Origin: an uncultured Candidatus Saccharibacteria bacterium
Lineage (GTDB): Bacteria; Patescibacteriota; Minisyncoccia; UBA6257; 2-01-FULL-56-20
Assembly (NCBI GenBank): GCA_964646415.1
Contig: CAZYEL010000001.1
Coordinates: forward strand, 394-64,393
Length of the DNA: 64,000 nt
Reading direction: 5' to 3'
Below, piece by piece: positions 1,785 to 55,528 of this stretch. The notes below the pieces were generated by a model. That model was not told where the DNA came from, did no database searches, and worked only from the letters and a program-made list of their open reading frames with translations. The position numbers were made by a program, and so were the translations under genes. Every line of letters starts with the position of its first letter. Positions within the stretch are counted from its first letter, which is position 1.

Positions 1785-4319
1785 TTATATCACCACCACG
1801 CCCGCAATTCTGTCTCCTGAACTCAAGTTCATAATCCGCACGCCTTGCGCGGAGCGGCCGGTCTGGCGGACGCTCTTTAGCTCCGTCCGAATCACCTGCC
1901 CCTTCGCCGAGAGCGCGAGCATTTCCATCTCCTCGCTCACCACCGTTCCCGCAACCACCTTTCCCGTCTTCGCGGTCACGTTCGCGGTCTTGATGCCGGA
2001 ACCGCCGCGGTTCTGGGTTTTATATTCCTTAAGCGGCGTCTGCTTCCCGAATCCGTTCGCCATAACCACCAAAAGTTTCGCGGTGTCCCCCTTCTTCACG
2101 ATGTCGCACCCCGCGACCGCGTCGCCCGTGCGAAGCCGGATGGCACGCACACCCGCCGCGCCGCGCCCCATGGGACGCGCTTGCGACTCCGCAAAACGGA
2201 CGGATTGCCCTTGTTCCGTTACCAGTATCACCTGCTCGTCGCCTTTCGAAATCCGCACCCACTTCAGCAGGTCGCCTTTTTTTCCGCCCGAGGCGGATCC
2301 GCCTTTGGTGGACAACTTAATCCCGATGATGCCCGTGCGGCGGATGTTTTCGAAATCCTTAAGCGCGGTCTTTTTCACTATCCCATGCTTGGTTACCATC
2401 ACAAGATAGATTCCCTTGTCGCTTGTCGCTTGTCGCTTGTCGCTCGATGGCAGGTTCACAATCGCGCTCACGCTTTCTTCGGCAGGAAGTTCGAGGAAGT
2501 TATGAATCGCTTTCCCTTTCGAGGTGCGGCTCGCGGCGGGGATTTCGTACGCACGCGTTTCGAATACTCTCCCGCGGTCGGTGAAGAAAAGAATCCGGTC
2601 GTGCGTGTTCGCGTGGAAGAAATGCGAAAGGAAATCCTCGTCCGCCACGTCCGACCCGATGAGCCCCTTCCCGCCCCGCCGCTGCGCTTTGAAGGAATCC
2701 GGCGGTACGCGTTTGATGTACCCGCTCGAAGAGAACGTCACAATAGCCTCCTCTTCGGGAACAAGGTCCTCGTCCGTCATTTCTTTGAGGGCAGAGTTCA
2801 CCACATGCGTCCGCCGCGCATCGCCGTATTTGGTTTTGAGTTCCGCAAGCTCCTGCTTCACCACCTCGAGCATCCGCGCGGGGCTCTTCAAAATAAGCGT
2901 GAGTTCTTTTATGAGCGCCCGTTTCTCCTTGAGTTCCGCATCGATTTTCTCACGCTCAAGCGCCGCCAAAGTCTGGAGCTTCATTTCCAAAATTGCCACC
3001 GCCTGGAGCTCCGAGAGCTTGAACCCTTTCATGAGGTTCATCCGCGCATCCTCGCGGTCCTTTGATTTCTTGATGGTTGCAATCACCTTGTCGATTACGT
3101 CCAAGGCCTTCGCAAGCCCTTCCAAAATATGCGCCCGCTCTTCCGCTTTCCTTAAATCGAACTGCGCGCGGCGGCGCACGATTTCCTTGCGATGCGCGAT
3201 GTAGGCGAGGAGCATCTCCTTCAGGGAGAAAAGCTCCGGCTGGATGCCGTCCCGCAAGGCAATCATATTGAAATGAAAATCCTTCTGGAGGTCGGAGTGC
3301 TGGTAGAGCTGGTTCAATACTTTCTGCGGCGCGGCGTCGGACTTGAGCTCCACCACAATCCGCAGGCCTTCGCGGTCGGACTCGTCGCGGAGGTCGCGGA
3401 TGCCTTCTACGCGCTTATCCGTAACGAGCATCGCAATGTGCTTCACAAGCTCGGACTTGTTCACCTGGTAGGGAATTTCCGTGATGACAATGTCGAACCC
3501 CCCCTGCCTGCCGGCAGGCAGGCGCGCACCACTCTCTCCCTTCTTGCGCTCCACAATCTCCGCTTTCGCGCGGGCCGTTACCGCGCCGCGCCCCGTCGCA
3601 TACGCCGTCCGAATAGCGGCGCGGTCGTAAATAACGCCGCCCGTCGGGAAATCCGGCCCCTTCACGTGCTCCAACAAATCCTCCCCCGTCGCGCCGGGCT
3701 TCTCCATAAGAAGAAGCGTCGCGTCCACCACCTCCACAAGGTTGTGCGGCGGGATACTCGTCGCCATCCCCACCGCGATTCCCAAAGTGCCGTTAATCAA
3801 AAGGTTGGGGAGCTTCGCGGGGAATACTTTCGGCTCCTCGCGGGTCGCGTCATAGTTCGGCAGCCAGTCCACCGTTTCTTTCTCGATATCAAAAAGCATC
3901 TCCTCCGCGACTTTCGAGAGACGCGCTTCCGTGTACCGCATCGCTGCGGGAGAATCCCCGTCGACGCTGCCGAAGTTTCCCTGCCCCTGCACAAGCGGGT
4001 ACCGGAGCGAGAAGTCCTGCGCCATCCGCGCGAGCGTGTCGTAAATCGCCACGTCGCCGTGCGGGTGGTATTTCGCCATCGTCTCGCCCACCACATTCGC
4101 CGATTTCCTGAACCTGGCGAGATGCGTGAGGCCGATGGACCACATGGTCCAAAGCACGCGCCGATGCACCGGCTTCAGCCCGTCGCGCACGTCCGGCAGG
4201 GCGCGCGCGACAATGACCGACATGGCATAGTCGAGGTAGGATTCGCTAAGCTCGCTCGTGATTGGACGTTTTTCTACGTTGTCTGGCATAGCATCGGATT
4301 TCGTGCTTCGGACTTTCAC
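1785..4319 (-). CDS. gyrA: DNA gyrase subunit A (probable true start at 4289, MPDNVEKRPITSEL...)
   Basis: Matches GyrA throughout: N-terminal 'YLDYAMSVIVARALPDVRDGLKPVHRRVLW', the active-site Tyr region and a C-terminal beta-pinwheel. Contains an in-frame (CGACAAG)4 heptad repeat at 2414..2444. Confidence 0.95.
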   Translation of the reverse strand: MKVRSTKSDAMPDNVEKRPITSELSESYLDYAMSVIVARALPDVRDGLKPVHRRVLWTMWSIGLTHLARFRKSANVVGETMAKYHPHGDVAIYDTLARMAQDFSLRYPLVQGQGNFGSVDGDSPAAMRYTEARLSKVAEEMLFDIEKETVDWLPNYDATREEPKVFPAKLPNLLINGTLGIAVGMATSIPPHNLVEVVDATLLLMEKPGATGEDLLEHVKGPDFPTGGVIYDRAAIRTAYATGRGAVTARAKAEIVERKKGESGARLPAGRQGGFDIVITEIPYQVNKSELVKHIAMLVTDKRVEGIRDLRDESDREGLRIVVELKSDAAPQKVLNQLYQHSDLQKDFHFNMIALRDGIQPELFSLKEMLLAYIAHRKEIVRRRAQFDLRKAEERAHILEGLAKALDVIDKVIATIKKSKDREDARMNLMKGFKLSELQAVAILEMKLQTLAALEREKIDAELKEKRALIKELTLILKSPARMLEVVKQELAELKTKYGDARRTHVVNSALKEMTDEDLVPEEEAIVTFSSSGYIKRVPPDSFKAQRRGGKGLIGSDVADEDFLSHFFHANTHDRILFFTDRGRVFETRAYEIPAASRTSKGKAIHNFLELPAEESVSAIVNLPSSDKRQATSDKGIYLVMVTKHGIVKKTALKDFENIRRTGIIGIKLSTKGGSASGGKKGDLLKWVRISKGDEQVILVTEQGQSVRFAESQARPMGRGAAGVRAIRLRTGDAVAGCDIVKKGDTAKLLVVMANGFGKQTPLKEYKTQNRGGSGIKTANVTAKTGKVVAGTVVSEEMEMLALSAKGQVIRTELKSVRQTGRSAQGVRIMNLSSGDRIAGVVVI
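2414..2444. repeat. heptanucleotide microsatellite (CTTGTCG)4 inside gyrA, encoding SDKRQATSDK
   Basis: Four perfect tandem 7-mers. The sense-strand 31-mer 'agcgacaagcgacaagcgacaagcgacaagg' is identical to 28826..28856 inside uvrD. Confidence 0.9.
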
Positions 4320-4624: not shown

Positions 4625-5187
4625 GCGGGCTTCAACGCAATAGTTTTCGTCCCTTGCATAGCCTCCAGGTCTTTTTTGCGGAACACGAACTTTTCTTCAA
4701 CGCCCCCGCTCTCGCCCATTTCTTTGAGGAACGGCGCGGGCGACTTTTCGTACGCGGGAATCACCACCTTCGGCTCGATTTGGCGCACCAGTTTTTCCGC
4801 CGCTTCATCGCTCAAATACTTCCCGCCCAGCCGGAGAAACACCACATCCGGCTCATTCAGCTTTTCCAAGAGGTCGGCTTCGAGAACTTTTTCGAGAGGC
4901 CCCAGGAACGCGAACGTCACATCCTCCCACCGCACGAGATGCGCCGTGTACGCCCGCCCAGGCTTTGCCTCAAGCGCAATACCGCGCACTTCTATCCCTT
5001 TGGACTCGTATTCGCCGGGGAACGCAAACTCCGTTTGCGGGCCCGGCTCCGCGCCAGAGGCGGGAGTTTCCGCATCGGTTTTGAGCACGATATCGCCCTT
5101 CAAACGATTCGAAACGGGGTCCACAAGGACCGAAATTTCGCCACTCTGAATGCGGAATGAACCCTCGCCTTGATAGGTAATAACCAC
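4621..5187 (-). CDS. MBL-fold metallo-hydrolase (UPF0173/YtkL-like)
   Basis: 188 aa. The N-terminus 'MVITYQGEGSFRIQSGEISVLVDP' is typical of the UPF0173 beta-lactamase-fold hydrolase family. Confidence 0.55.
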   Translation of the reverse strand: MVITYQGEGSFRIQSGEISVLVDPVSNRLKGDIVLKTDAETPASGAEPGPQTEFAFPGEYESKGIEVRGIALEAKPGRAYTAHLVRWEDVTFAFLGPLEKVLEADLLEKLNEPDVVFLRLGGKYLSDEAAEKLVRQIEPKVVIPAYEKSPAPFLKEMGESGGVEEKFVFRKKDLEAMQGTKTIALKPA

Positions 5188-5246: not shown

Positions 5247-6347
5247 ATGGCAGAATCGGCAAACAACAAACCGGCGCAGAGCACGCTTCTCGATGCCCTC
5301 AAAAACACCATTCCCCCAAGCGAGTGGCCGAAGGAAGGAAGCGTTGCCGAGGTGAAATTGCTCCGGAAAACAGACCGTAAGGTCTTTTTCGATATGGGGA
5401 AATTCGGCACCGGCATCGTGTGGGGAGCGGAACTCCTGAACGCACGGGAAATGGTGAAAGATTTGAAAGCCGGCGATGCCTGCCTCGCGAAAATAAAAGC
5501 CATCGAATCCGACGAGGGGTTCATTGAACTCTCGCTCGCCGAAGCCGGAAGGGAGCGGCTCTGGCAGCAAGCAAGAGAATTCCTTGAATCGGGTGAGCTT
5601 GTGAAAGTTAAAGTGGTGGGCGCGAACGCGGGAGGGCTCACTGCAACCCTTTTCGACCTCAAGGCGTTCCTTCCCGTTTCGCAACTTTCGCAGGAGCACT
5701 ACCCGCGCGTCGAGGACGGCGACCGCCAGAAAATTTTCGACGAACTCAAGAAATTTATCGGGCAGGAACTCACGGTGAAGGTAATCGACGTGAACCCGCG
5801 GCACAACAAGTTCATTCTTTCCGAGCGCGAGGTGGTGAGCGGGAACGTGAAGGAGCTTCTGAAGAAATACAAAACGGGCGACGAAATTCAGGGACTGGTG
5901 ACTGGCATTGCGGACTTTGGCGCGTTCGTGCGCTTCGTGGACGAGCCGCAGCTCGAGGGACTTATCCATATCTCCGAGCTTGCACATGCGCTCGTGGACA
6001 ATCCGAAAGACGTGCTCAAAGTGGATGAAACAGTAAAGGCAAAAATTATCGACATCCGCGAAGACGGGCGGGTGTTCCTCTCACTCAAGGCGCTCCAGGC
6101 GGACCCGTGGACGACGCTCGGCGACCGCTACAAGAAAGGAGATGAGGTAGAGGGCAAGGGCTACAAGCTCAATCCCTTCGGCGCCATCGTTGACCTCGGC
6201 GGCGGCATCCAGGGCACCGTCCACATTGCGGAATTTGAGTCCGCGGACACAATGAAAAAAATACTCACGCCAGGCGGCACACACAGGTTTGTGGTTGAAA
6301 CGGTGAAACCGGAGGAGAAAAGGATTGTACTCAAACTGAAGAAATAA
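5247..6347 (+). CDS. rpsA: 30S ribosomal protein S1 (short 4x S1-domain form)
   Basis: 366 aa with repeated S1 OB-fold motifs: 'GxVxGxVxxIxDFGAFVxF', 'EGLIHISELA', 'GAIVDLGGGIQGTVHIAEF'. Confidence 0.8.
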   Translation: MAESANNKPAQSTLLDALKNTIPPSEWPKEGSVAEVKLLRKTDRKVFFDMGKFGTGIVWGAELLNAREMVKDLKAGDACLAKIKAIESDEGFIELSLAEAGRERLWQQAREFLESGELVKVKVVGANAGGLTATLFDLKAFLPVSQLSQEHYPRVEDGDRQKIFDELKKFIGQELTVKVIDVNPRHNKFILSEREVVSGNVKELLKKYKTGDEIQGLVTGIADFGAFVRFVDEPQLEGLIHISELAHALVDNPKDVLKVDETVKAKIIDIREDGRVFLSLKALQADPWTTLGDRYKKGDEVEGKGYKLNPFGAIVDLGGGIQGTVHIAEFESADTMKKILTPGGTHRFVVETVKPEEKRIVLKLKK

Positions 6348-7123: not shown

Positions 7124-7426
7124 GCCGCGGTAGCTCAGTGGTAGAGCATTCGCCTGAACTCTTCGGGCACCGATTCAGTAATGAATCGGCGAAAACTGGG
7201 TGAACTCGGGGAAACTTCTTTTTTAAAGAACAATCCCGAGCCAAGCCCCGACGCAAAATCGGGGAAGGTGTAGAGACTATCCCTTCGGGGAGTACTCTCC
7301 AACATGGGTCGGAGCGGAAGCGCCCAGCTCCCGTAATCGCACGGCGATTTTATGGGATGATGATATAGTCCAAACTTCGTAAGGAAGAGCGATTGGTCGG
7401 GTGTTCGATTCACCCCCGCGGCACCA
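7124..7426 (+). tRNA. tRNA-Phe(GAA) interrupted by a group I intron in the anticodon loop (encoded CCA)
   Basis: 5' exon GCCGCGGTAGCTCAGTGGTAGAGCATTCGCCT (7124-7155). 3' exon GAAGAGCGATTGGTCGGGTGTTCGATTCACCCCCGCGGCACCA (7384-7426). The acceptor stem is a perfect 7 bp, the T-arm is GGGTG/TTCGATT/CACCC, and the anticodon loop is CT-GAA-GA. Confidence 0.85.
7156..7383 (+). mobile_element. group I self-splicing intron (228 nt, no internal ORF) between tRNA-Phe positions 33 and 34
   Basis: Exon U33 precedes the 5' splice site. The internal guide sequence GGGC pairs with exon GCCU. Conserved R-like 'gtagagactat' and S-like 'gatgatatagtcc' elements form P7 (AGACUA/UAGUC). The intron ends with G (cgtaaG). 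Confidence 0.8.
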
Positions 7427-7484
7427 AAAAACTTCAAACTTCTCTGGCATTATTTTGATTTGAGAAAAGTTTCCTTGTTAAAAT

Positions 7485-8045
7485 CTATTGCAACGCGCAA
7501 TTTTTAAGATACATAGTTAAAACAGTGCGCCAAGCGATAACTCCAGAAAACCTAACTTTCTGTCCTATCTTTAGAGACGCAGCAGTTTTCTCCCAGTCTC
7601 CCGAAAAATCACAACTCAAATATGAGAACATATCCTTCTCATTCTTTGTAATCGAAACCGATATTGCATCACTAGAAAACTTATCCACGTCCAATACATA
7701 CCCCTCATCTTTTACAACCAACCCAATATACTTCTCAAAAACTCCTTCTTTCTCAAGGGATGTGCTTGATGATTTCTCTATCTCATTACGCAAAGAGAAA
7801 ACAGAGTACGGCAAGACACCAAGTTTTGAATCCTCTCTGCCGTTCGTCTCTGTAGAAGTGGGGGGAGTAAAGATTTGCTGGTAACTACCTATTGCAACAT
7901 TCTGCGCTGTGATCCCCCCACTCTGTTTTTCAGAAGAAACACCGCTCGAGTTTTCTCTCCCTATACCAAAAATATAGTAAAGCACGAGCGAGGCGAGTAC
8001 TGCTCCAAAGACTGCTACTGTCCAGGGATTTTTCAAGAACCACAT
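7485..8045 (-). CDS. hypothetical membrane-anchored protein in a low-GC (~42%) segment
   Basis: 186 aa with an N-terminal TM helix and no known motifs. Its GC is far below the flanking sequence, and it sits inside a tRNA cluster. Confidence 0.4.
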   Translation of the reverse strand: MWFLKNPWTVAVFGAVLASLVLYYIFGIGRENSSGVSSEKQSGGITAQNVAIGSYQQIFTPPTSTETNGREDSKLGVLPYSVFSLRNEIEKSSSTSLEKEGVFEKYIGLVVKDEGYVLDVDKFSSDAISVSITKNEKDMFSYLSCDFSGDWEKTAASLKIGQKVRFSGVIAWRTVLTMYLKNCALQ

Positions 8046-20222: not shown

Positions 20223-20846
20223 TTACGACTTCTTCACAATTTGGTCAATCAAGCCGTACTCTTTCGCTTCCGCGGCGGTCATGTAGAAATCGCGGTCGGT
20301 GTCTTTCTCTATTTTCCCGATAGCCTGTCCCGTGTGCTTCGCGAGAATCTGGTTGATGTTGTCTTTAATCTTAATAATGTGCCGCGCGGTGATTTCCACT
20401 TCGGTTGCCTGGCCCTCGGCGCCACCCATGACCTGGTGCAGAAGAATTTCCGAGTTTGGCAACGTGAAGCGCTTCCCCTTCTTTCCCGCAGCGAGCAGCA
20501 CCGCGCCCATTGACGCCGCCATGCCTACGCACATCGTAACCACATCCGGCTTCACATACTGCATCGTGTCGTAAATCGCCATTCCCGCCGTTACCGACCC
20601 GCCGGGAGTATTCAGGTACAACTTAATATCTTTTTTCGAATCCTCATGCTCAAGGAACAGTAACTGGGCAATCACATTATTTGCCACCGCATCATTCACG
20701 GGTCCTCCCAAAAAAATGATGCGCTCTTTGAGAAGGCGGGAATAAATGTCGTACGCCCGTTCGCCATACTGGCTTTTTTCGATAACGGTGGGGATAAGAT
20801 TCATCTTGGCATAAATCCGAAACTCTAATTTCGAAATCCTAAACAA
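20223..20846 (-). CDS. clpP: ATP-dependent Clp protease proteolytic subunit (probable start MNLIPTV at 20804)
   Basis: Catalytic Ser region '[14 protein letters not shown]' and 'RIIFLGGPV'. Confidence 0.9.
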
Positions 20847-20940
20847 ATGACAAATTCTAAACTCGAATGCTCCAAACTTTGGAATTTAGATATTCGTGTT
20901 TGGAATTTGTTTAGAGTTTCGTGTTTCGATATTCGGATTT
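20824..20940. repeat. AT-rich palindromic intergenic element (cargo-less member of the TTGGAATTT/GAAATCCGAATATCGAAA repeat family)
   Basis: Left arm 'tcgaaatcctaaacaaat' and right arm 'atttgtttagagtttcgtgtttcgatattcggattt' are inverted. The right arm reverse complement shares an exact 18-mer 'gaaatccgaatatcgaaa' with 39972..39989. Confidence 0.7.
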
Positions 20941-38002: not shown

Positions 38003-39397
38003 ATGAATCTCAAGCCCACCACAATTCAAAGAAAGCAGCTCGCGCAGCGCTGGGACATGCTCCCCATAAACCTCCGTGAGGCAATGACCGACGAGCGCAA
38101 TTCCGAAATCCTCTGGAAAGTATGCACCGACGAGCACCTCTCCGAGGAGAAAACGCGCGAAGTCGCCCGCATCGCCGCATGGGTAATGATGGGCTTCCTC
38201 CACCCTGCGGATGTCGCAAATGAAGTAAAGCTCTCCATCGGCATCCACCCCGAGCTTGCGGCGACGATTGCGAACACGCTGAACGCAAAACTCTTCGCGC
38301 CGATGCGGGAAGAGCTTGAGGGAACCTATGCTCCTCCGGGAACCGAGCCGCATTACCAGGAGCCCGCCGCAGCCGCCACGTTTGAAGACATCAGGCCCCC
38401 AGAAGCATTGGAACAAACGCTCGCGAACATCAGCAAGGGCGCTCCTGCCGAACCGTTCTTTAAAGAAACGCCCGTGTCTCTCGACTCTCTGAACGCCGGA
38501 CCTTCGGGCTCCCAAGACCAGGCCTTGTACACGCCGCCCGCGTCTCCATTTGACCTCTCCTCGTTCTCCCCCGAACCCCCTCCGGCGCCCCCCGCTCCCT
38601 CGCAAAGCTCAAACTTCTCCACTAAAGGTGGATCCGCCTCTGGCGGAGAAGCGCAAAGTTCTCCTTTCATCCTCCACGAGGAGCCCGCCGCGCCTTCGCT
38701 CCCGAACGCCGGGGATTTCTCTCTCGACATCACACCCGAAGAGTTCGGCCCCTCGCAACCGGAATTCGAGAATATCCCTCAAGCGAACATCGAAATCGGC
38801 GGTGGGGCTACCGCCCCCGCCGAAACGCGCGGACGGGACGCGGAACAACGCGGAACCGGAACACAGGAGCCTCGCACCGTCCACTACGGGGATTTGCGCA
38901 CACCGCTTTCCGCATCCACCAAGGTTGAACCTTTAGGGGATTCTCAAGGTTCAACCTTAGAAACTCTGTCCTCACCGCCAAAGGCGAGTTCTCCGGGCGA
39001 CGTATTGCGCTTCTCCGATTTTGGCAAAGAACCAGAGGTCCCGCCCGCGCCTCCCGCAAACGCACCCGAAGCGGATTTGCCTCCGCCGCCACGCAAAACT
39101 CCCTATCTCGCCAAGGAACAGAAAAAGCCGGGGTTCTTCGCGCGCTTTTTTGGGAAAAAGGAGACGAGCGCATCGCCCGCGCCCGAAGAGATATCTCTGC
39201 CGTTGCCTCCACCCCCTCCACCTTCGGCCCGCTTCACCAAAGCTTCAGCGGGGCGAGTCGCCAAAGGGACCTTCCCTACCGCCAAGCCTTTGCCTGTGAT
39301 ACCTCCATTTCCTGACATACCCCCCTCTCCGCCGCCTCAACCCTCCGCAACAAAGCCAAAGGACAATGATGTGATTGATTTAAGCTCTTTGAAGTAA
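38003..39397 (+). CDS. proline-rich acidic protein of unknown function (T4SS-like operon)
   Basis: 464 aa with a structured N-terminal ~120 aa followed by PPAPPAP/PPPPPP low-complexity sequence. Confidence 0.45.
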   Translation: MNLKPTTIQRKQLAQRWDMLPINLREAMTDERNSEILWKVCTDEHLSEEKTREVARIAAWVMMGFLHPADVANEVKLSIGIHPELAATIANTLNAKLFAPMREELEGTYAPPGTEPHYQEPAAAATFEDIRPPEALEQTLANISKGAPAEPFFKETPVSLDSLNAGPSGSQDQALYTPPASPFDLSSFSPEPPPAPPAPSQSSNFSTKGGSASGGEAQSSPFILHEEPAAPSLPNAGDFSLDITPEEFGPSQPEFENIPQANIEIGGGATAPAETRGRDAEQRGTGTQEPRTVHYGDLRTPLSASTKVEPLGDSQGSTLETLSSPPKASSPGDVLRFSDFGKEPEVPPAPPANAPEADLPPPPRKTPYLAKEQKKPGFFARFFGKKETSASPAPEEISLPLPPPPPPSARFTKASAGRVAKGTFPTAKPLPVIPPFPDIPPSPPPQPSATKPKDNDVIDLSSLK

Positions 39398-39446
39398 TTT
39401 CCAACTTCCTACTTACCGCTTAAAGCTAAAAGCTTAACGCTATCCT

Positions 39447-39959
39447 ATGCAATTCCAAATTCCCCAATTCGTGGAAACGGAAGATAAGATTGTGGGCCCC
39501 CTCACGCTCAAGCAATTCATCTACGTTGCCATCGCGGGCGGCATCTCGCTCCTTCTCTATTTCATAGTCCAGATATGGCTGTGGCTTATACTCTCCATTC
39601 CCATCATCGGAATCGGCGTCGGCTTTGCATTTATAAAAGTCGGGGGGAGGGCGCTCCCCGCGATCGCCCGAGCGGCATTCTCCTACGTGTGGAGGCCCCA
39701 AACCTACGTGTGGCAACCAGAGAAGGCTCCTGCGACAAGCGGCAAGGGGCAAGAGGCAAGAGGCGAAGAAAAATCTGCGAGGCTTTCACTCGAAGAAGTC
39801 CTTTCGGGCTTCGCGCTCCGCCGGACATGGCAAAGACTCCAAACCGGCGCCAGCAAGGTTTCCCCGGGAATTTTCCTAGGCAAGTCCCAAGACCGCTACG
39901 CCATCTACCGCAAGCGCAGCGGGGAATTGGGAGCGGCGAGAAGAGTGGATTATAGGTAA
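39447..39959 (+). CDS. small 2-TM membrane protein, VirB3/PrgI-like candidate
   Basis: 170 aa. 'MQFQIPQFVETEDKIVGPLTLKQFIYVAIAGG' is followed by two hydrophobic helices, and the gene sits directly upstream of VirB4. It contains a degenerate heptad repeat at 39732..39768. Confidence 0.35.
   Translation: MQFQIPQFVETEDKIVGPLTLKQFIYVAIAGGISLLLYFIVQIWLWLILSIPIIGIGVGFAFIKVGGRALPAIARAAFSYVWRPQTYVWQPEKAPATSGKGQEARGEEKSARLSLEEVLSGFALRRTWQRLQTGASKVSPGIFLGKSQDRYAIYRKRSGELGAARRVDYR
39732..39768. repeat. degenerate heptanucleotide repeat (GNGRCRA)5 related to the gyrA/uvrD GCGACAA repeat
   Basis: 'gcgacaa gcggcaa ggggcaa gaggcaa gaggcga ag'. Confidence 0.6.
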
Positions 39960-39967
39960 TAGGAGAA

Positions 39968-40030
39968 GCACGAAATCCGAATATCGAAATCCTAAACAAA
40001 TCCGAATGAGCCAAATTCCAAATTCCAAAG
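39968..40030. repeat. upstream inverted-repeat arm of four-helix-bundle gene cassette (TTGGAATTT family)
   Basis: 'gcacgaaatccgaatatcgaaatcctaaacaaatccgaatgagccaaattccaaattccaaagg'. Shares the 'aatatcgaa ...(23-24 nt)... aaattccaa' layout with the reverse complement of 40381..40452 and an 18-mer with 20824..20940. Confidence 0.65.
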
Positions 40031-40380
40031 GGAAAACGTACGACCTCGAAGAGCGGGCGCTTCTGTTCACCAAACGAACAGCCCGATATGTAAATAAACT
40101 TCCGAAGACCATACCGAACGTAGAAAGCGGCAAGCAGCCTATGAGAGCTAGCGGTTCCGTCGGGGCAAACTACATTGAAGCGAATGAGTGTTTGGGCAAG
40201 AAAGACTTTGCAATGAAGATCAAAACATCAAAAAAGGAGGCGAAGGAAGCTAGATACTGGCTCGCAATCACCGAACCTGCGCCCGAGGAAGAAAAAGAGA
40301 AAGAGGCGCTTTCTCAAGAAGCTACAGAACTCATGAAGATCTTCGGGTCAATTCTCGAAAAGACGAAATGGGCGGTATAA
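40006..40380 (+). CDS. four-helix-bundle protein (23S rRNA intervening-sequence protein / TIGR02436 / Avd-like family)
   Basis: 124 aa. 'YDLEERALLFTKRTARYVNKLP...ASGSVGANYIEANE...SKKEAKEARYWL' matches the family signature. Confidence 0.6.
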   Translation: MSQIPNSKGKTYDLEERALLFTKRTARYVNKLPKTIPNVESGKQPMRASGSVGANYIEANECLGKKDFAMKIKTSKKEAKEARYWLAITEPAPEEEKEKEALSQEATELMKIFGSILEKTKWAV

Positions 40381-40452
40381 TGGGCTTGAAACTTCGTGCT
40401 TGGAATTTAGTAATTGTTTCGTGTTTTGATATTCGATATTAGAAATTTTCAC
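40381..40452. repeat. downstream inverted-repeat arm of the four-helix-bundle gene cassette
   Basis: 'tgggcttgaaacttcgtgcttggaatttagtaattgtttcgtgttttgatattcgatattagaaattttcacg'. Confidence 0.6.
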
Positions 40453-40455
40453 GCT

Positions 40456-41127
40456 ATGCCCAAAGAATTCGCCAACGCACAAGACCTCGTCGCGGTAAAA
40501 GAAATCCGGGAGGGGACGCTGCTCCTCAAAGACGGCAGTTTCCGGCAGGTACTTATGGTAAACGGCGTCAATTTCGCGCTGCGCTCGGAAGTGGAACAGA
40601 ACACCATCACCGCTTCCTACCAGAATTTTTTGAACACGCTCGATTTCCCGCTCCAGATTATCATCCATTCCCGCAAAATAAACATTGATAAATACCTTGA
40701 AAAACTCGCCGCGTGCGAGCAAGCGGAATCCACGCCAATCCTCCGCAGCCAGAATGCGGAATACCGGGAGTTTATCAGGGGGTTCGTGGAAAAAAACGCC
40801 ATTATGGAAAAAATATTTTTTGCGGTTGTCCCTTGGGTAACCGTATCTCTTCCCACCACGAAAAGCCTTATGCGGTTCATTCCGTTCCTGGGGCGGAGCA
40901 AAACCGCCGATGATGCCGAGGCAAAAGAGAAAGAAGAGTCATTTGAGGAATCCCTGGAGCAGCTCAAGCAGCGCGTTTCCCAAGTCGTTGAAGGGCTCGC
41001 CTCCGTCGGCCTTGAAGCAGTTCCCCTCGGCAACCGGGAGCTCGCCGAGATGCTCTATAACTTTTACAATCCCGAGTCCGTCGAGCGGGAAAATATCAAT
41101 TTGCCCGCCGAAGGCGCAAAGAACTAG
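40456..41127 (+). CDS. VirB4/TrbE-family N-terminal domain (separate ORF ending at in-frame TAG)
   Basis: 'LLKDGSFRQVLMVNGVNFALRSEVEQNTITASYQNFLNTLDFPLQIIIHSRK' aligns with the VirB4 N-terminus 'LLEDGSIMSIARIDGVAFELEE...RAFNTLFRNI...'. It is in the same frame as the 41140 ORF. Confidence 0.55.
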   Translation: MPKEFANAQDLVAVKEIREGTLLLKDGSFRQVLMVNGVNFALRSEVEQNTITASYQNFLNTLDFPLQIIIHSRKINIDKYLEKLAACEQAESTPILRSQNAEYREFIRGFVEKNAIMEKIFFAVVPWVTVSLPTTKSLMRFIPFLGRSKTADDAEAKEKEESFEESLEQLKQRVSQVVEGLASVGLEAVPLGNRELAEMLYNFYNPESVERENINLPAEGAKN

Positions 41128-41139
41128 AAATATATTTCT

Positions 41140-42873
41140 ATGTCAGACCCCGGAATTCCCGACATCTCAAAAATCATAGCCCCCGCAGGCGCGGAAGTGA
41201 CTCCAAACTATCTGAAGTTGGGCAACAAGCTCGCGAAAACATTCTTTGTGCTTTCCTACCCGCGCTATCTCACAACCGGATGGTTTGAGCCAATCGTAAA
41301 CTTGCCCAGCCTTCTCGATGTTTCCATTTTCATCAACCCCATGGACACGGGGGATGCCCTGAAAAATCTCCGGAAAAAGGCGGCGCAGCTTGAATCGCAA
41401 ATCTCGGACACGGAGGAAAAGGGGCTCGTCCGCGACCCGCTCCTTGAAACCGCCCTGCGCGATGTGGAATCCCTACGCGACACGCTCCAACAATCGGAAG
41501 AGAAACTCTTCAACGTCGCGCTCTATATCGCAATTTACGCCGATACCCCCGATGAACTCGCCCGGCTCGAGGGGCAAATCATTTCGCTCATGGAAGCAAA
41601 GCTGGTTTATATCAAGCCTGCGCTCTTTGAACAACTTGAAGCGTTGCTCTCCGTGTTCCCCTTCGGGAACGACCGCATCCGCATCGGCACCTCGATGAAC
41701 TCGAGTCCCATTTCCTCATTCTTCCCGTTTGTGTCCGAAGACCTCACCTCAAACGAAGGAATTATGTACGGCATCAACCGCCACAACAACAGTCTTGTCG
41801 TCTTCGACAGGTTTTCGCTTGAGAACGCAAATCAGGTAGTATTCGCCAAATCGGGTTCCGGAAAATCATACTCCACGAAACTCGAAATCATCAGGTCGCT
41901 CATGGTGGGCACCGAAATCATCGTGATTGACCCGGAGAATGAATACCAGCGGCTCGCCGAAGCTTTGGGCGGAAGCTTCTTCAATATTTCGCTTTCATCC
42001 GAGGAGCACATCAACCCCTTCGACATCCCCATCATCCCGGATGGAGAATCGCCTTCGGACATTCTCCGGTCGCACATCGTGAACCTCGCAAGTCTGGTGA
42101 AACTCATGCTCGGGAAAATCACGCCCGAGGAAGATTCGCTCCTCGACCGCGCGATTACCGAAACCTACGCCTCGCGCGAGATTGTGGCGGGAGAAGATTT
42201 CTCCGGCAAAGAAGCCCCGCTTCTTGAGGACCTTGAAACCGTGCTCCGGAACCTTGAGGGCGGCCGCGCGATGGCGGAGCGCCTTTATAAATACACGAAG
42301 GGTTCCTTCGCGGGATTCGTGGACCAACACACCAACATCGACATCAACAACCGCTTCATTGTCTTTTCCATCCGCGACCTCGAAGAAGAGCTTCGCCCCA
42401 TCGCGATGTTCGTCATTCTAAACTTCATCTGGAATCTTATCCGCGCACGCCTCAAGCGCCGCGTTCTCATCATTGATGAGGCGTGGATTATGATGAAAAA
42501 CGAGGATTCCGCCACCTTCCTCTTCGGACTTGTGAAACGCGCCAGAAAATATTATCTCGGCGTCTCCACCATCACGCAGGACGTCGAGGACTTCCTCCGC
42601 TCCCCGTACGGCAGGCCCATTATTACCAACTCTTCGCTTCAGTTGCTCCTTAAACAAGCACCCGCTACGATTGACGTCGTTGCAAAAGCGTTTGACCTCA
42701 CTGAAGCGGAGAAAGGGCTCCTCCTCGGCGCCGAAGTGGGCATGGGGCTTTTCTTCGCCGGGAAAAAGCATGTGGCAATCCAGATTGTCGCATCCTATTT
42801 CGAAGACCAGATCGTTACCACCAATCCTCAAGCGCTTCTCAACGAGAAAAGCGAGAAAGAAGGAGCGAAATAA
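41140..42873 (+). CDS. virB4: VirB4/TrbE/CagE-family T4SS ATPase (C-terminal ATPase portion)
   Basis: Walker A 'VFAKSGSGKSYSTKLEI', Walker B 'RRVLIIDEAWIMM' and the motif 'GVSTITQD'. Confidence 0.85.
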   Translation: MSDPGIPDISKIIAPAGAEVTPNYLKLGNKLAKTFFVLSYPRYLTTGWFEPIVNLPSLLDVSIFINPMDTGDALKNLRKKAAQLESQISDTEEKGLVRDPLLETALRDVESLRDTLQQSEEKLFNVALYIAIYADTPDELARLEGQIISLMEAKLVYIKPALFEQLEALLSVFPFGNDRIRIGTSMNSSPISSFFPFVSEDLTSNEGIMYGINRHNNSLVVFDRFSLENANQVVFAKSGSGKSYSTKLEIIRSLMVGTEIIVIDPENEYQRLAEALGGSFFNISLSSEEHINPFDIPIIPDGESPSDILRSHIVNLASLVKLMLGKITPEEDSLLDRAITETYASREIVAGEDFSGKEAPLLEDLETVLRNLEGGRAMAERLYKYTKGSFAGFVDQHTNIDINNRFIVFSIRDLEEELRPIAMFVILNFIWNLIRARLKRRVLIIDEAWIMMKNEDSATFLFGLVKRARKYYLGVSTITQDVEDFLRSPYGRPIITNSSLQLLLKQAPATIDVVAKAFDLTEAEKGLLLGAEVGMGLFFAGKKHVAIQIVASYFEDQIVTTNPQALLNEKSEKEGAK

Positions 42874-54261: not shown

Positions 54262-54804
54262 TTATGCCACGAATGCTTTTGTAAGGTGTGCAACAAGCGC
54301 GATGGCGAGCGCATCGCTCGCGTCATCAATCACGGCGAGCGCGGGGCAATTAAGCACAAGGCGCACCATCTTTGCGACGGCTACCTTGTCCGCAAGGCCA
54401 TACCCGGTGAGGTGCGATTTTATTTCTCCCGGGCCGAACTCGGCGATGGGAAGGTTGTGTTCTGCGGCGGCAAGGAGAATAACGCCCCTCGCTTGCGCCA
54501 CCGCAACCCCCGTTTTCTGGTTCTTCGTGATGTAGAGCTTCTCAACAGCAACCCCCGAGGGATGGAACTTCCTAATCATCGCATCCATCCCTTTCTTGAT
54601 ATCCAGGAGACGCAGGTACGCGTTCTCGCGGCGCACCGGGAGAAGCCCCGCGGAAAGGAAGCGGCATTCGTTGCGAGTGCTCTCTATGACGCCGTAGCCT
54701 GCGCGGTGCGTGCCGGGGTCGATGCCGAGGATAACCATAAGAGAATTTCTAATTATTCTAATTGACCTAATTTCTAAAGAAATCCCAATGAATGAAAATC
54801 TCAC
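54262..54804 (-). CDS. ruvC: crossover junction endodeoxyribonuclease RuvC (probable start MVILGIDPGT at 54738)
   Basis: 'ILGIDPGTHRAGYGV' and the catalytic Asp/Glu pattern. Conserved yebC-ruvC adjacency. Confidence 0.85.
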   Translation of the reverse strand: MRFSFIGISLEIRSIRIIRNSLMVILGIDPGTHRAGYGVIESTRNECRFLSAGLLPVRRENAYLRLLDIKKGMDAMIRKFHPSGVAVEKLYITKNQKTGVAVAQARGVILLAAAEHNLPIAEFGPGEIKSHLTGYGLADKVAVAKMVRLVLNCPALAVIDDASDALAIALVAHLTKAFVA

Positions 54805-54840
54805 GTTGAGACATTCGTGCTTGGGATTTACTTAGGTTAA

Positions 54841-55371
54841 TTAGGATTTTGCATTGGTGTACACTTCCTGCACGTCCAGATGCTCTTCAAGCGTGGCGAT
54901 GAGCACGGCGAGTTTCGCTGCATCTTCCGGCGCGAGGGAGAGGGGGAACGTTGCGTGCCGCCCCCCCTCTTTTTCTTCAAATGCCCATGTGACGCTTCCT
55001 GGTTCCGCCCATTTTCCCTCATGCGCGGTAAGTACATGCTTCACTTCGGAAACGGTTCTGTTGCGGTTGTCCGTCGTCGCTTCGATGAGGAGGGCGGTGC
55101 CGCCGGGACCGTATGCCTCAAAGAGGAGTTCTTCGATTGCGTCGCCGGCTTCGCGAGCTCGCCCAATGGCCCGTGCGATGTTCTCCGCAGGCACATTTTC
55201 CGCGCGCGCTTTTTCAACCGCAGTCCGCAGGCGCGGGTTGAAGTCCGGGTTTGGGTCCTTTTTCGCCGCCGCGGTTATGAGCGCGAGAAGCTTTGAGAAT
55301 ACGACCCCTCGCTTTTTGTCCGTAATCTCTTTTTTGTGCTTGATACCCGCCCAGTGGGAATGGCCTGACAT
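54841..55371 (-). CDS. yebC: YebC/PmpR-family transcriptional regulator (short form)
   Basis: 'MSGHSHWAGIKHKK' is the YebC N-terminal signature. Confidence 0.8.
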   Translation of the reverse strand: MSGHSHWAGIKHKKEITDKKRGVVFSKLLALITAAAKKDPNPDFNPRLRTAVEKARAENVPAENIARAIGRAREAGDAIEELLFEAYGPGGTALLIEATTDNRNRTVSEVKHVLTAHEGKWAEPGSVTWAFEEKEGGRHATFPLSLAPEDAAKLAVLIATLEEHLDVQEVYTNAKS

Positions 55372-55528
55372 ACTGCCAGCATAGCCGGAAAGTTCTAAAT
55401 TTCAAATCCCAAATTCCAAAAATCTCAAAACCAAAACCTCCAATTACTTCAAACTGTGCGCCGATCATTCGGTTGGAATTTGGAGCTTGGGGATTGGAAT
55501 TTGTAAGGTGTGGGGTATAGTGGGAAGA

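Follow-up and report, generated by a model that had tools for sequence, protein, structure and literature searches.

A four-helix-bundle gene cassette with heptamer-repeat arms at the PrgI/VirB4 junction of a Patescibacteria operon: a probable counterpart of 23S rRNA intervening sequences

In a 64,000-nt stretch of DNA from an uncultured Candidatus Saccharibacteria bacterium (contig CAZYEL010000001.1; called the window in the following), a type IV secretion system (T4SS)-like operon carries a small open reading frame (ORF) for a four-helix-bundle (FHB) protein, flanked by inverted repeats, between its PrgI-family and VirB4 genes. This raises the question whether the ORF is a functional part of the operon, the cargo of a transposon, the remnant of a retroelement or an element of its own. 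We interpret the unit at 39966-40447 as a selfish FHB cassette of the intervening sequence (IVS) type, with a probability of about 0.55. It would represent the architecture of S23p-encoding IVSs living in mRNA operons of Patescibacteria, with ORF-less derivatives and a recurrently used T4SS-like operon junction.

Anatomy of the cassette and its family

The assignment of the ORF to the FHB family, first made from the sequence alone, was confirmed with TIGR02436 (62.1 bits, cut-off 24) and PF05635 (43.9 bits, cut-off 33.8). Its position between the VirB3-like PrgI gene and the VirB4 N-terminus was also verified by matches to PF12666 and VirB4 profiles. The element borders were set by register with the family consensus (Table 1). 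With these borders the stop codon of the PrgI-family gene lies 6 nt 5' of the left end.

The imperfect inverted repeats reported to bracket the ORF are real. The pattern AATATCGAA-N-AAATTCCAA was found three times in the window (39980 +, 40440 - and 20933 -, with spacings of 24, 23 and 16 nt) and not once in 100 shuffles. In the minimum-free-energy fold of the whole cassette RNA both arms are paired. The arm duplex reached -30 kcal/mol, compared to -18.5 +/- 4.1 kcal/mol for shuffled arms (z = -2.8; 1 of 200 shuffles was as good). The arms form a ~60-bp imperfect heptamer stem, with the FHB start codon in one of its internal loops. FHB codons 1-8 (40006-40029, AAATTCC heptamers) are part of this stem, too, and encode the N-terminus that is disordered in the structure model. 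Chance or low complexity as origin of the arms was ruled out by the shuffle controls.

A metagenome scan yielded 80 related loci. In the following, L-numbers denote retrieved loci, type 1 the FHB subfamily of the window and type 2 a distant FHB subfamily at the T4SS junction. By comparison with these loci, the window unit is one copy of a uniform element of ~450-480 nt, which was seen in 75 further metagenome loci. For a conservation profile, 74 type-1 loci were anchored on the ATG. The information content climbs from ~0 to 0.5-1.4 bits exactly at position -40 from the ATG and is ~0 just outside both element ends. The left arm of the family comprises five heptamers plus 5 nt (40 nt) before the ATG, with the consensus AAATCCN AAANNCN AAATNCN AAATTCT AAACAAA TTCAA ATG. 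On the right, the arm consists of the 34-nt array TTGTTTAGAATTTAGATATTAGAATTTAGGATTT, and conservation stops exactly 34 nt after TTGTTT. The consensus of the first ~8 codons, ACNGAAATTCAAAATTCAAAAC, is complementary to the post-stop motif GTTTTGAACATTTGAA. Periodicity at lags of 7 and 14 nt was detected in both arms and was absent from the ORF body.

Pairing of the arms was counted in register and ungapped. This count replaced RNAalifold on MAFFT-aligned arms, in which misaligned heptamers left no more than the 8-bp AAACAAA/TTTGTTT core. Over 34 nt, 76% of the pairs were canonical, dropping to ~35% from nt 35 on. The pairing is periodic: in each heptamer ~5 positions are paired and 2-3 are not. 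Four heptamer positions are variable; T-A is found there in 17-24 loci and G-C in 8-10 loci, indicating compensatory covariation of the arms. Conserved mismatches were observed as well: in consensus heptamer 3 (window 39980-39986/40432-40438), AAATTCT is opposed to AGATATT (A.A, T.T). Due to such mismatches and an internal loop of 2-3 nt every 7 nt, the stem is never a perfect duplex.

The arms occur in different flavours (CGAA/TTCG or CTAA/TTAG), and both arms have the same one in 63 of 76 loci. The nearest FHB relative shares the flavour in 51 of 58 loci. Thus, the flavour follows the FHB phylogeny, and arms and ORF are inherited as one unit. The mean arm duplex energy was -44 kcal/mol for cognate, -39 kcal/mol for non-cognate and -28 kcal/mol for shuffled arms.

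Type-1 elements were found in ~70 unrelated contexts, among them the spacer between DsbD and cupredoxin genes, leuC and neighbouring tRNA genes, and copies are also clustered. According to a crude ORF calling, the upstream neighbour shares the strand of the element in 65 of 69 loci (94%), typically ending at the left end of the element, and the downstream neighbour in 54 of 67 loci. No rRNA signatures were detected in the 80 related loci beyond spurious short-motif matches. The Rfam scan of the window gave tRNAs and one group I intron only, and no rRNA.

Originally, the unit was predicted to be a DNA-level transposon similar to miniature inverted-repeat transposable elements (MITEs). The arms would then be terminal inverted repeats for a transposase encoded elsewhere, the FHB gene would be cargo, and empty hairpins would be the basic element. 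One part of this prediction stands: the unit is discrete and repeat-bounded, it occurs in many contexts and in clusters, and ORF-less copies are present both in the window and in further genomes. The sharp ends, the inverted termini of ~34 nt and stems without strand asymmetry are compatible with a DNA-level feature, too. The FHB gene, however, is the core and not an optional cargo, since the arm includes its start codon and first ~8 codons, and the ORF is passed on together with the arms. A target-site duplication of at least 4 nt was found in none of 23 precisely delimited copies, and the counts for 2-3 nt equalled those of permuted controls. The arm sequences differ completely between lineages, even in orthologous cassettes, while they remain complementary. 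This weighs against a MITE, because a transposase would need conserved ends. Furthermore, the bias for the sense orientation is unexpected for cut-and-paste insertion, and no transposase was detected within +/-10 kb of the cassette. We therefore regard this explanation as unlikely.

Neisseria Correia elements and the enterobacterial repetitive intergenic consensus sequences or intergenic repeat units (ERIC/IRU) are MITEs with transcripts that fold into RNase-processed hairpins. Like the cassette they are small, intergenic, multi-copy inverted repeats. They are co-transcribed with flanking genes, as is predicted for the cassette, and some contain outward promoter elements. In contrast to them, the cassette shows no target-site duplication and its ends are not conserved across lineages. 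The full-length cassette also encodes a non-transposase protein with the start codon inside the arm. A closer analogue than these or any other MITE is the S23p-encoding IVS of 23S rRNA.

Table 1 Features of the cassette region and gene-less hairpins in the window (PrgI orthologues are given by locus number)
Feature	Position	Strand	Remarks
PrgI-family (VirB3-like) gene	39447..39959	+	PF12666, 34.6 bits; orthologues in L008, L011-L036
Shine-Dalgarno (SD)-like AGGAGA box	39961..39966	+	direct sequence reading; ~40 nt upstream of FHB ATG, at foot of left arm
Left arm	39966..40005	+	heptamers AAGCACG AAATCCG AATATCG AAATCCT AAACAAA + TCCGA; ATG follows
FHB gene, 124 amino acids	40006..40380	+	PF05635/TIGR02436
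-10-like hexamer TATAAT	40376..40381	+	overlaps FHB stop codon
Right arm	40382..40447	+	post-stop segment GGGCTTGAAACTTCGTGCTTGGAATTT pairs with N-terminal codons
Right-arm 34-nt array TTGTTTCGTGTTTTGATATTCGATATTAGAAATT	40414-40447	+	pairs with left heptamers
VirB4 N-terminal (TraC-like) ORF	40456..41127	+	begins 8 nt past right end of element
VirB4 ATPase C-terminal ORF	41140..42873	+	NF045971, 385 bits
ORF-less hairpin	20813..20940	- (sense)	z ~ -6 on either strand; fills H+-PPase/ClpP spacer
Shorter ORF-less hairpin AAATCCCAATG...GTTGAGACATT...TTGGGATTT	54766..54846	+	z = -5.8
Degenerate hairpin, same heptamer flavour	55390..55503	undefined	z = -2.0 on +; between divergent YebC and PilB-like genes

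Likeness to 23S rRNA intervening sequences and predicted role of the FHB protein

IVSs with an S23p ORF are present in the 23S rRNA of Coxiella burnetii, Leptospira, Brucella and Xanthomonas. They have been known since about 1990, with their origin, their spread and the role of the conserved ORF left unexplained (PMC4990558). The IVS of Coxiella burnetii is described as a selfish element of 428 nt with a stem, in which the AGAAGA box is followed by tandem GACAGAT heptamers and then by the S23p ATG; the first heptamer is the cleavage site of RNase III (PMC4990558). For the candidate phyla radiation (CPR), rRNA insertions containing 23S_rRNA_IVP ORFs were reported (PMC11270868).

The common features are a unit of ~430-760 nt with a PF05635 ORF looped in a long terminal-inverted-repeat stem, and a purine-rich SD-like box (AGGAGA in the window, AGAAGA in Coxiella) followed by tandem heptamers right before the ATG. 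The GC content is lower than that of the host, and the sporadic distribution suggests horizontal spread. Transcription only within the host RNA would be a further common trait, assumed for the cassette by analogy. Differences were also found. The host is a protein-coding operon (with tRNA flanks elsewhere) instead of rRNA helix 25 or 45. Strong purifying selection acts on the cassette ORF; that of Coxiella, in contrast, is in decay and apparently not translated. Here, the element also has ORF-less derivatives, and cassettes have been exchanged at one site. Cleavage by RNase III is known for the Coxiella IVS and is predicted for the cassette.

The scan of 39300-40700 for sigma-70 promoters revealed no promoter, and terminator-like matches in the same region were at chance level. 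The cassette, placed in the spacer right after a same-strand stop codon, appears to be promoterless and would be transcribed by read-through of the host operon. The S23p-encoding IVS serves as a model here: RNase III probably cleaves the heptamer stem of the cassette, too, which would release the FHB message from the polycistronic transcript. The FHB protein most likely binds the heptamer-repeat nucleic acid of its own element, as the accessory protein Avd binds the RNA of diversity-generating retroelements (DGRs). The cassette would persist and diversify in spacers directly after stop codons. We consider this behaviour as selfish, because a sharply bounded unit is present in many unrelated spacers, decays to pseudogenes and solo arms, and is accompanied by ORF-less hairpins.

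The AlphaFold model of the monomer (36 homologues) is a four-helix bundle with an overall predicted local distance difference test (pLDDT) score of 91, falling below 50 at residues 1-8. Foldseek ranked BT_0352 (2RLD; template modelling score (TM) 0.71-0.81) first, followed by Xcc0516 (2GSC; TM 0.73-0.80) and then DGR Avd (TM 0.63-0.73). The structures 2RLD and 2GSC contain five chains each, and by analogy with these relatives the FHB protein is predicted to be a pentamer-forming, Avd/S23p-like protein. In comparison with the L008 orthologue the nonsynonymous divergence (dN) was 0.08 and the synonymous divergence (dS) ~2, which is saturated (dN/dS 0.04). The dN of FHB (0.08) was lower than that of the VirB4 N-terminal ORF (0.14) and of PrgI (0.23). 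Judged by these substitution rates, the protein is clearly under strong purifying selection and functional. More than 6,500 FHB relatives were retrieved in a protein search, mostly from Patescibacteria and many of them 60-75% identical. Neither FHB type was matched in PADLOC, a match to Avd in PHROGs was obtained for the type-2 protein only, and no relative of type-1 FHB was detected in IMG/VR viral contigs.

DGRs are common in CPR, and Avd (4DWL, 8UB7) belongs to the same fold and superfamily as the FHB protein; it forms a pentamer that binds nucleic acid and serves as scaffold for a structured RNA. The gene could thus be a remnant or orphan Avd accessory gene of a DGR, and the type-2 junction proteins match PF22296 (bAvd-like) and the PHROG 'Avd protein of DGR'. 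Yet no reverse transcriptase (RT) domain was found among the genes called within +/-10 kb, nor any direct repeat of at least 40 nt resembling a template/variable repeat pair in 30000-50400, in agreement with the earlier statement that the locus is no canonical DGR. The structural similarity is lower for Avd than for S23p proteins, and the self-contained hairpin unit occurs in dozens of contexts without RT. A DGR origin is therefore highly improbable.

A more far-reaching idea is that the FHB pentamer is the mobility or maintenance factor of its element. A ring of five subunits would bind the ~5 heptamers of an arm, either in RNA or in single-stranded DNA, and would then promote the copying of the hairpin unit into new spacers that follow a stop codon. 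The route would need no transposase and might be template switching or recombination. Alternatively, a DGR-type RT might be supplied in trans, as Avd is an RT cofactor in DGRs. IVSs of 23S rRNA, FHB genes in cas loci, arrays like the cyanobacterial short tandemly repeated repetitive (STRR) sequences and CPR hairpins would then form one ancient group of mobile elements. We consider this idea as quite unlikely; if true, it would describe a previously unrecognised kind of element-encoded protein.

Several results weigh against an IVS-type selfish cassette. The orientation bias depends on ORF calls that are crude. The mean duplex energies of sense and antisense stems were -45.7 and -44.4 (p = 0.19), with no excess of G-U wobble pairs on the sense strand; this test has low power, since heptamer repeats permit alternative registers. 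Without strand asymmetry, a role at the RNA level is indistinguishable from a DNA hairpin. Near-identical copies or presence/absence polymorphisms were not observed among the loci, so no recent insertion was caught. The arms of the window are the weakest of nine junction cassettes. An rnc gene was found neither in the window nor in 650 kb of related loci, which is uninformative as these are small genome pieces. Finally, the cassette is old and has stayed intact throughout a clade, which fits a domesticated module no less than a selfish element that persists.

The PrgI/VirB4 junction in related operons

A genome scan with the VirB4 N-terminal sequence yielded 28 related operons. In most of them PrgI and VirB4 are separated by ~25-60 nt without insert. 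At least 18 related T4SS operons have no cassette, and the outgroups are empty. In a neighbour-joining tree of VirB4 (no bootstrap) the window (WIN) forms a clade with L012, L014, L011, L008 and L013, every member of which is occupied at this junction. Cassettes were identified in L008, L012, L013 and L014, and a remnant of ~100 nt in L011. The cassette of L008 is orthologous (FHB 86% identical) with the same right flank, plus an extra hairpin. L012, L013 and L014 harbour a type-2 FHB. It is similar to 2GSC and Avd, and BLASTP gives no alignment between it and the window protein. The type-2 arm heptamers AGCTTTT, GTGAGTG and TTAGATT are unrelated to AAATCCN of the window, yet the arms are paired in each lineage. 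Four further type-2 homologues, chosen solely for long contigs, were all located at the PrgI/VirB4 junction. A type-1 cassette at this site was also detected in the distant L072. Complementary arms were found for all nine junction cassettes, with z = -2.8 to -6.7.

The original prediction had named the presence of the gene at the same position in relatives as a sign of an ancestral operon member. Such cassettes do exist in L008 and L012-L014, but L013 carries the other subfamily and the outgroups are empty. According to these comparisons, the junction is long occupied in the window clade and was hit by both FHB subfamilies. The saturated synonymous sites between window and L008 indicate that the occupation is old. 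From its recurrent use the junction appears to be a preferred site; by a rough count, ~5 of ~34 well-flanked type-1 loci are next to PrgI.

Other positions in the operon are also used, upstream of PrgI (L046, L091, L119) and between the VirB4 halves (L091). VirB4 of the window is encoded by two ORFs with a gap of 12 nt. The same split was found in L119-L124, whereas L008 has a single gene for 812 amino acids. A link between this split and cassette insertion is possible. L091 contains a second FHB cassette (4684-5163), with inverted arms of its own, exactly in the VirB4 split. In L119 two type-2 cassettes (1426-1821 and 2501-2860) bracket PrgI in one operon; their arm heptamers differ, with AGGTGTT/AGGTTTT in one cassette and AGCTTTT in the other.

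The flanks of the cassette gave different relationships. The gene upstream of PrgI (38003-39397) of the window is 57% identical to L008 and 44% to L013. In contrast, the VirB4 N-terminal ORF is 85% identical to L013 and 80% to L008. L013 is thus the closest relative by VirB4, yet it carries the other FHB subfamily. This pattern of identities suggests a recombination breakpoint near the cassette, and the switch of type may reflect allelic recombination rather than a new insertion.

Between the end of the FHB ORF and the VirB4 ATG the hexamer TAYAAT (often GGTACAAT) was found in all nine distinct junction cassettes and in the L011 remnant, regardless of the FHB subfamily (window, L008, L011-L014, L072, L119-L124). 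Among other type-1 loci it was present in 10 of 75. By its sequence and position, TATAAT at 40376-40381 may be a candidate outward promoter element for VirB4.

These results bear on the possibility that the cassette is a domesticated module of the T4SS operon. FHB gene and stem would then be a functional part of it, for example a site of processing or insulation by which the expression of PrgI is uncoupled from that of VirB4, with an outward -10 element for VirB4. Junction cassettes in L008, L012, L013, L014, L072 and four type-2 lineages, the L011 remnant, the additional cassettes upstream of PrgI and inside the VirB4 split, the hexamer enriched ahead of VirB4 and the selection on the protein fit this possibility. 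However, the same uniform element is present in ~70 unrelated contexts, and cyanobacterial FHB genes with heptamer arms are found in cas and nrd operons. The related operons without cassette argue against a necessary operon part, and two FHB subfamilies that cannot be aligned substitute for each other at the site. Furthermore, the full sigma-70 promoter scan was negative. Thus, we regard domestication as rather unlikely.

Gene-less hairpins, cyanobacterial relatives and a split tRNA gene

The cargo-less repeat that had been noticed near 20824..20940 is a strong hairpin, refined to 20813-20940. Read on the minus strand, its left heptamers are followed by a degenerate start region, and its right heptamers are preceded by the post-stop motif GTTTGGAGCATT. 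Two more gene-less hairpins, not noticed before, lie at 54766-54846 and 55390-55503. The former fills the YebC/RuvC spacer and is antisense to both genes. The 64-kb window therefore holds one full copy and three ORF-less copies. The anatomy of empty hairpins was compared in the window, L008, L041, L049, L056, L059, L086 and L090. They still have the heptamers of both the left and the right arm, a start region with the ATG and a few codons, and the post-stop motif. As all four parts are retained, the gene-less hairpins look like derivatives of full cassettes that lost the ORF by internal deletion.

In L118 three stages were detected within 6 kb, a solo left arm (1615-1700) before a leuC-like gene and two ORF-bearing copies (2961-3433 and 5520-5985). 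One of these copies is intact, the other contains an in-frame stop in the GANYIEAN motif. Both share 70% DNA identity.

FHB genes (23S_rRNA_IVP) inside CRISPR-cas loci were treated as candidate cas-associated functions by Zhang and Ye (2013, PMC3936711); the parts of that paper considered here mention neither heptamer arms at these genes nor a cassette. We identified inverted heptamer arrays at cyanobacterial FHB genes between cas10 and cmr3 in Picosynechococcus (L127) and between cas6 and cas4 in Anabaena 90 (L128). On a Nostoc plasmid (L125) an FHB gene is located antisense between two ribonucleotide reductase subunit genes (alpha, beta). The cyanobacterial arm heptamers are GGAGATA, GGTGACA and GGGAGTA x8 / CCCTACT, the GGGAGTA duplex reaching -90 kcal/mol. 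Taken together with the Patescibacteria, PF05635 genes seem to be generally accompanied by heptamer arms in different phyla. The cyanobacterial STRR heptanucleotide repeats, reportedly described by Mazel and co-workers in 1990, are tandem intergenic heptamers as well. The cyanobacterial FHB arms look like STRR-type arrays in inverted orientation and hint at a possible link between both. In the literature searched, neither a published link between STRR and FHB genes nor a description of FHB cassettes with heptamer arms outside rRNA was found.

An IVS architecture outside rRNA would open thousands of intact, selected copies with exact ends to study. The binding of the protein to heptamer arrays, the processing of operon mRNAs by RNase III and the comparison of occupied with empty sites become testable. 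The annotation of Patescibacteria is affected as well, since hairpins fill whole intergenic spacers. Genes annotated as 'four helix bundle' in cas, T4SS and other operons may be intruders and not operon functions.

Apart from the cassette, a tRNA gene at 7125-7427 (+) of the window is apparently split in the anticodon loop by a group I intron. ARAGORN did not call this split tRNA, and the neighbouring ORF 7485-8045 (-) gave no Pfam match. The Rfam family Intron_gpI matched at 7146-7389 with 61 bits. With the 5' half GCCGCGGTAGCTCAGTGGTAGAGCATTCGCCTGAA and the 3' half ending in ...CGATTGGTCGGGTGTTCGATTCACCCCCGCGGCACCA, the anticodon may be GAA (Phe).

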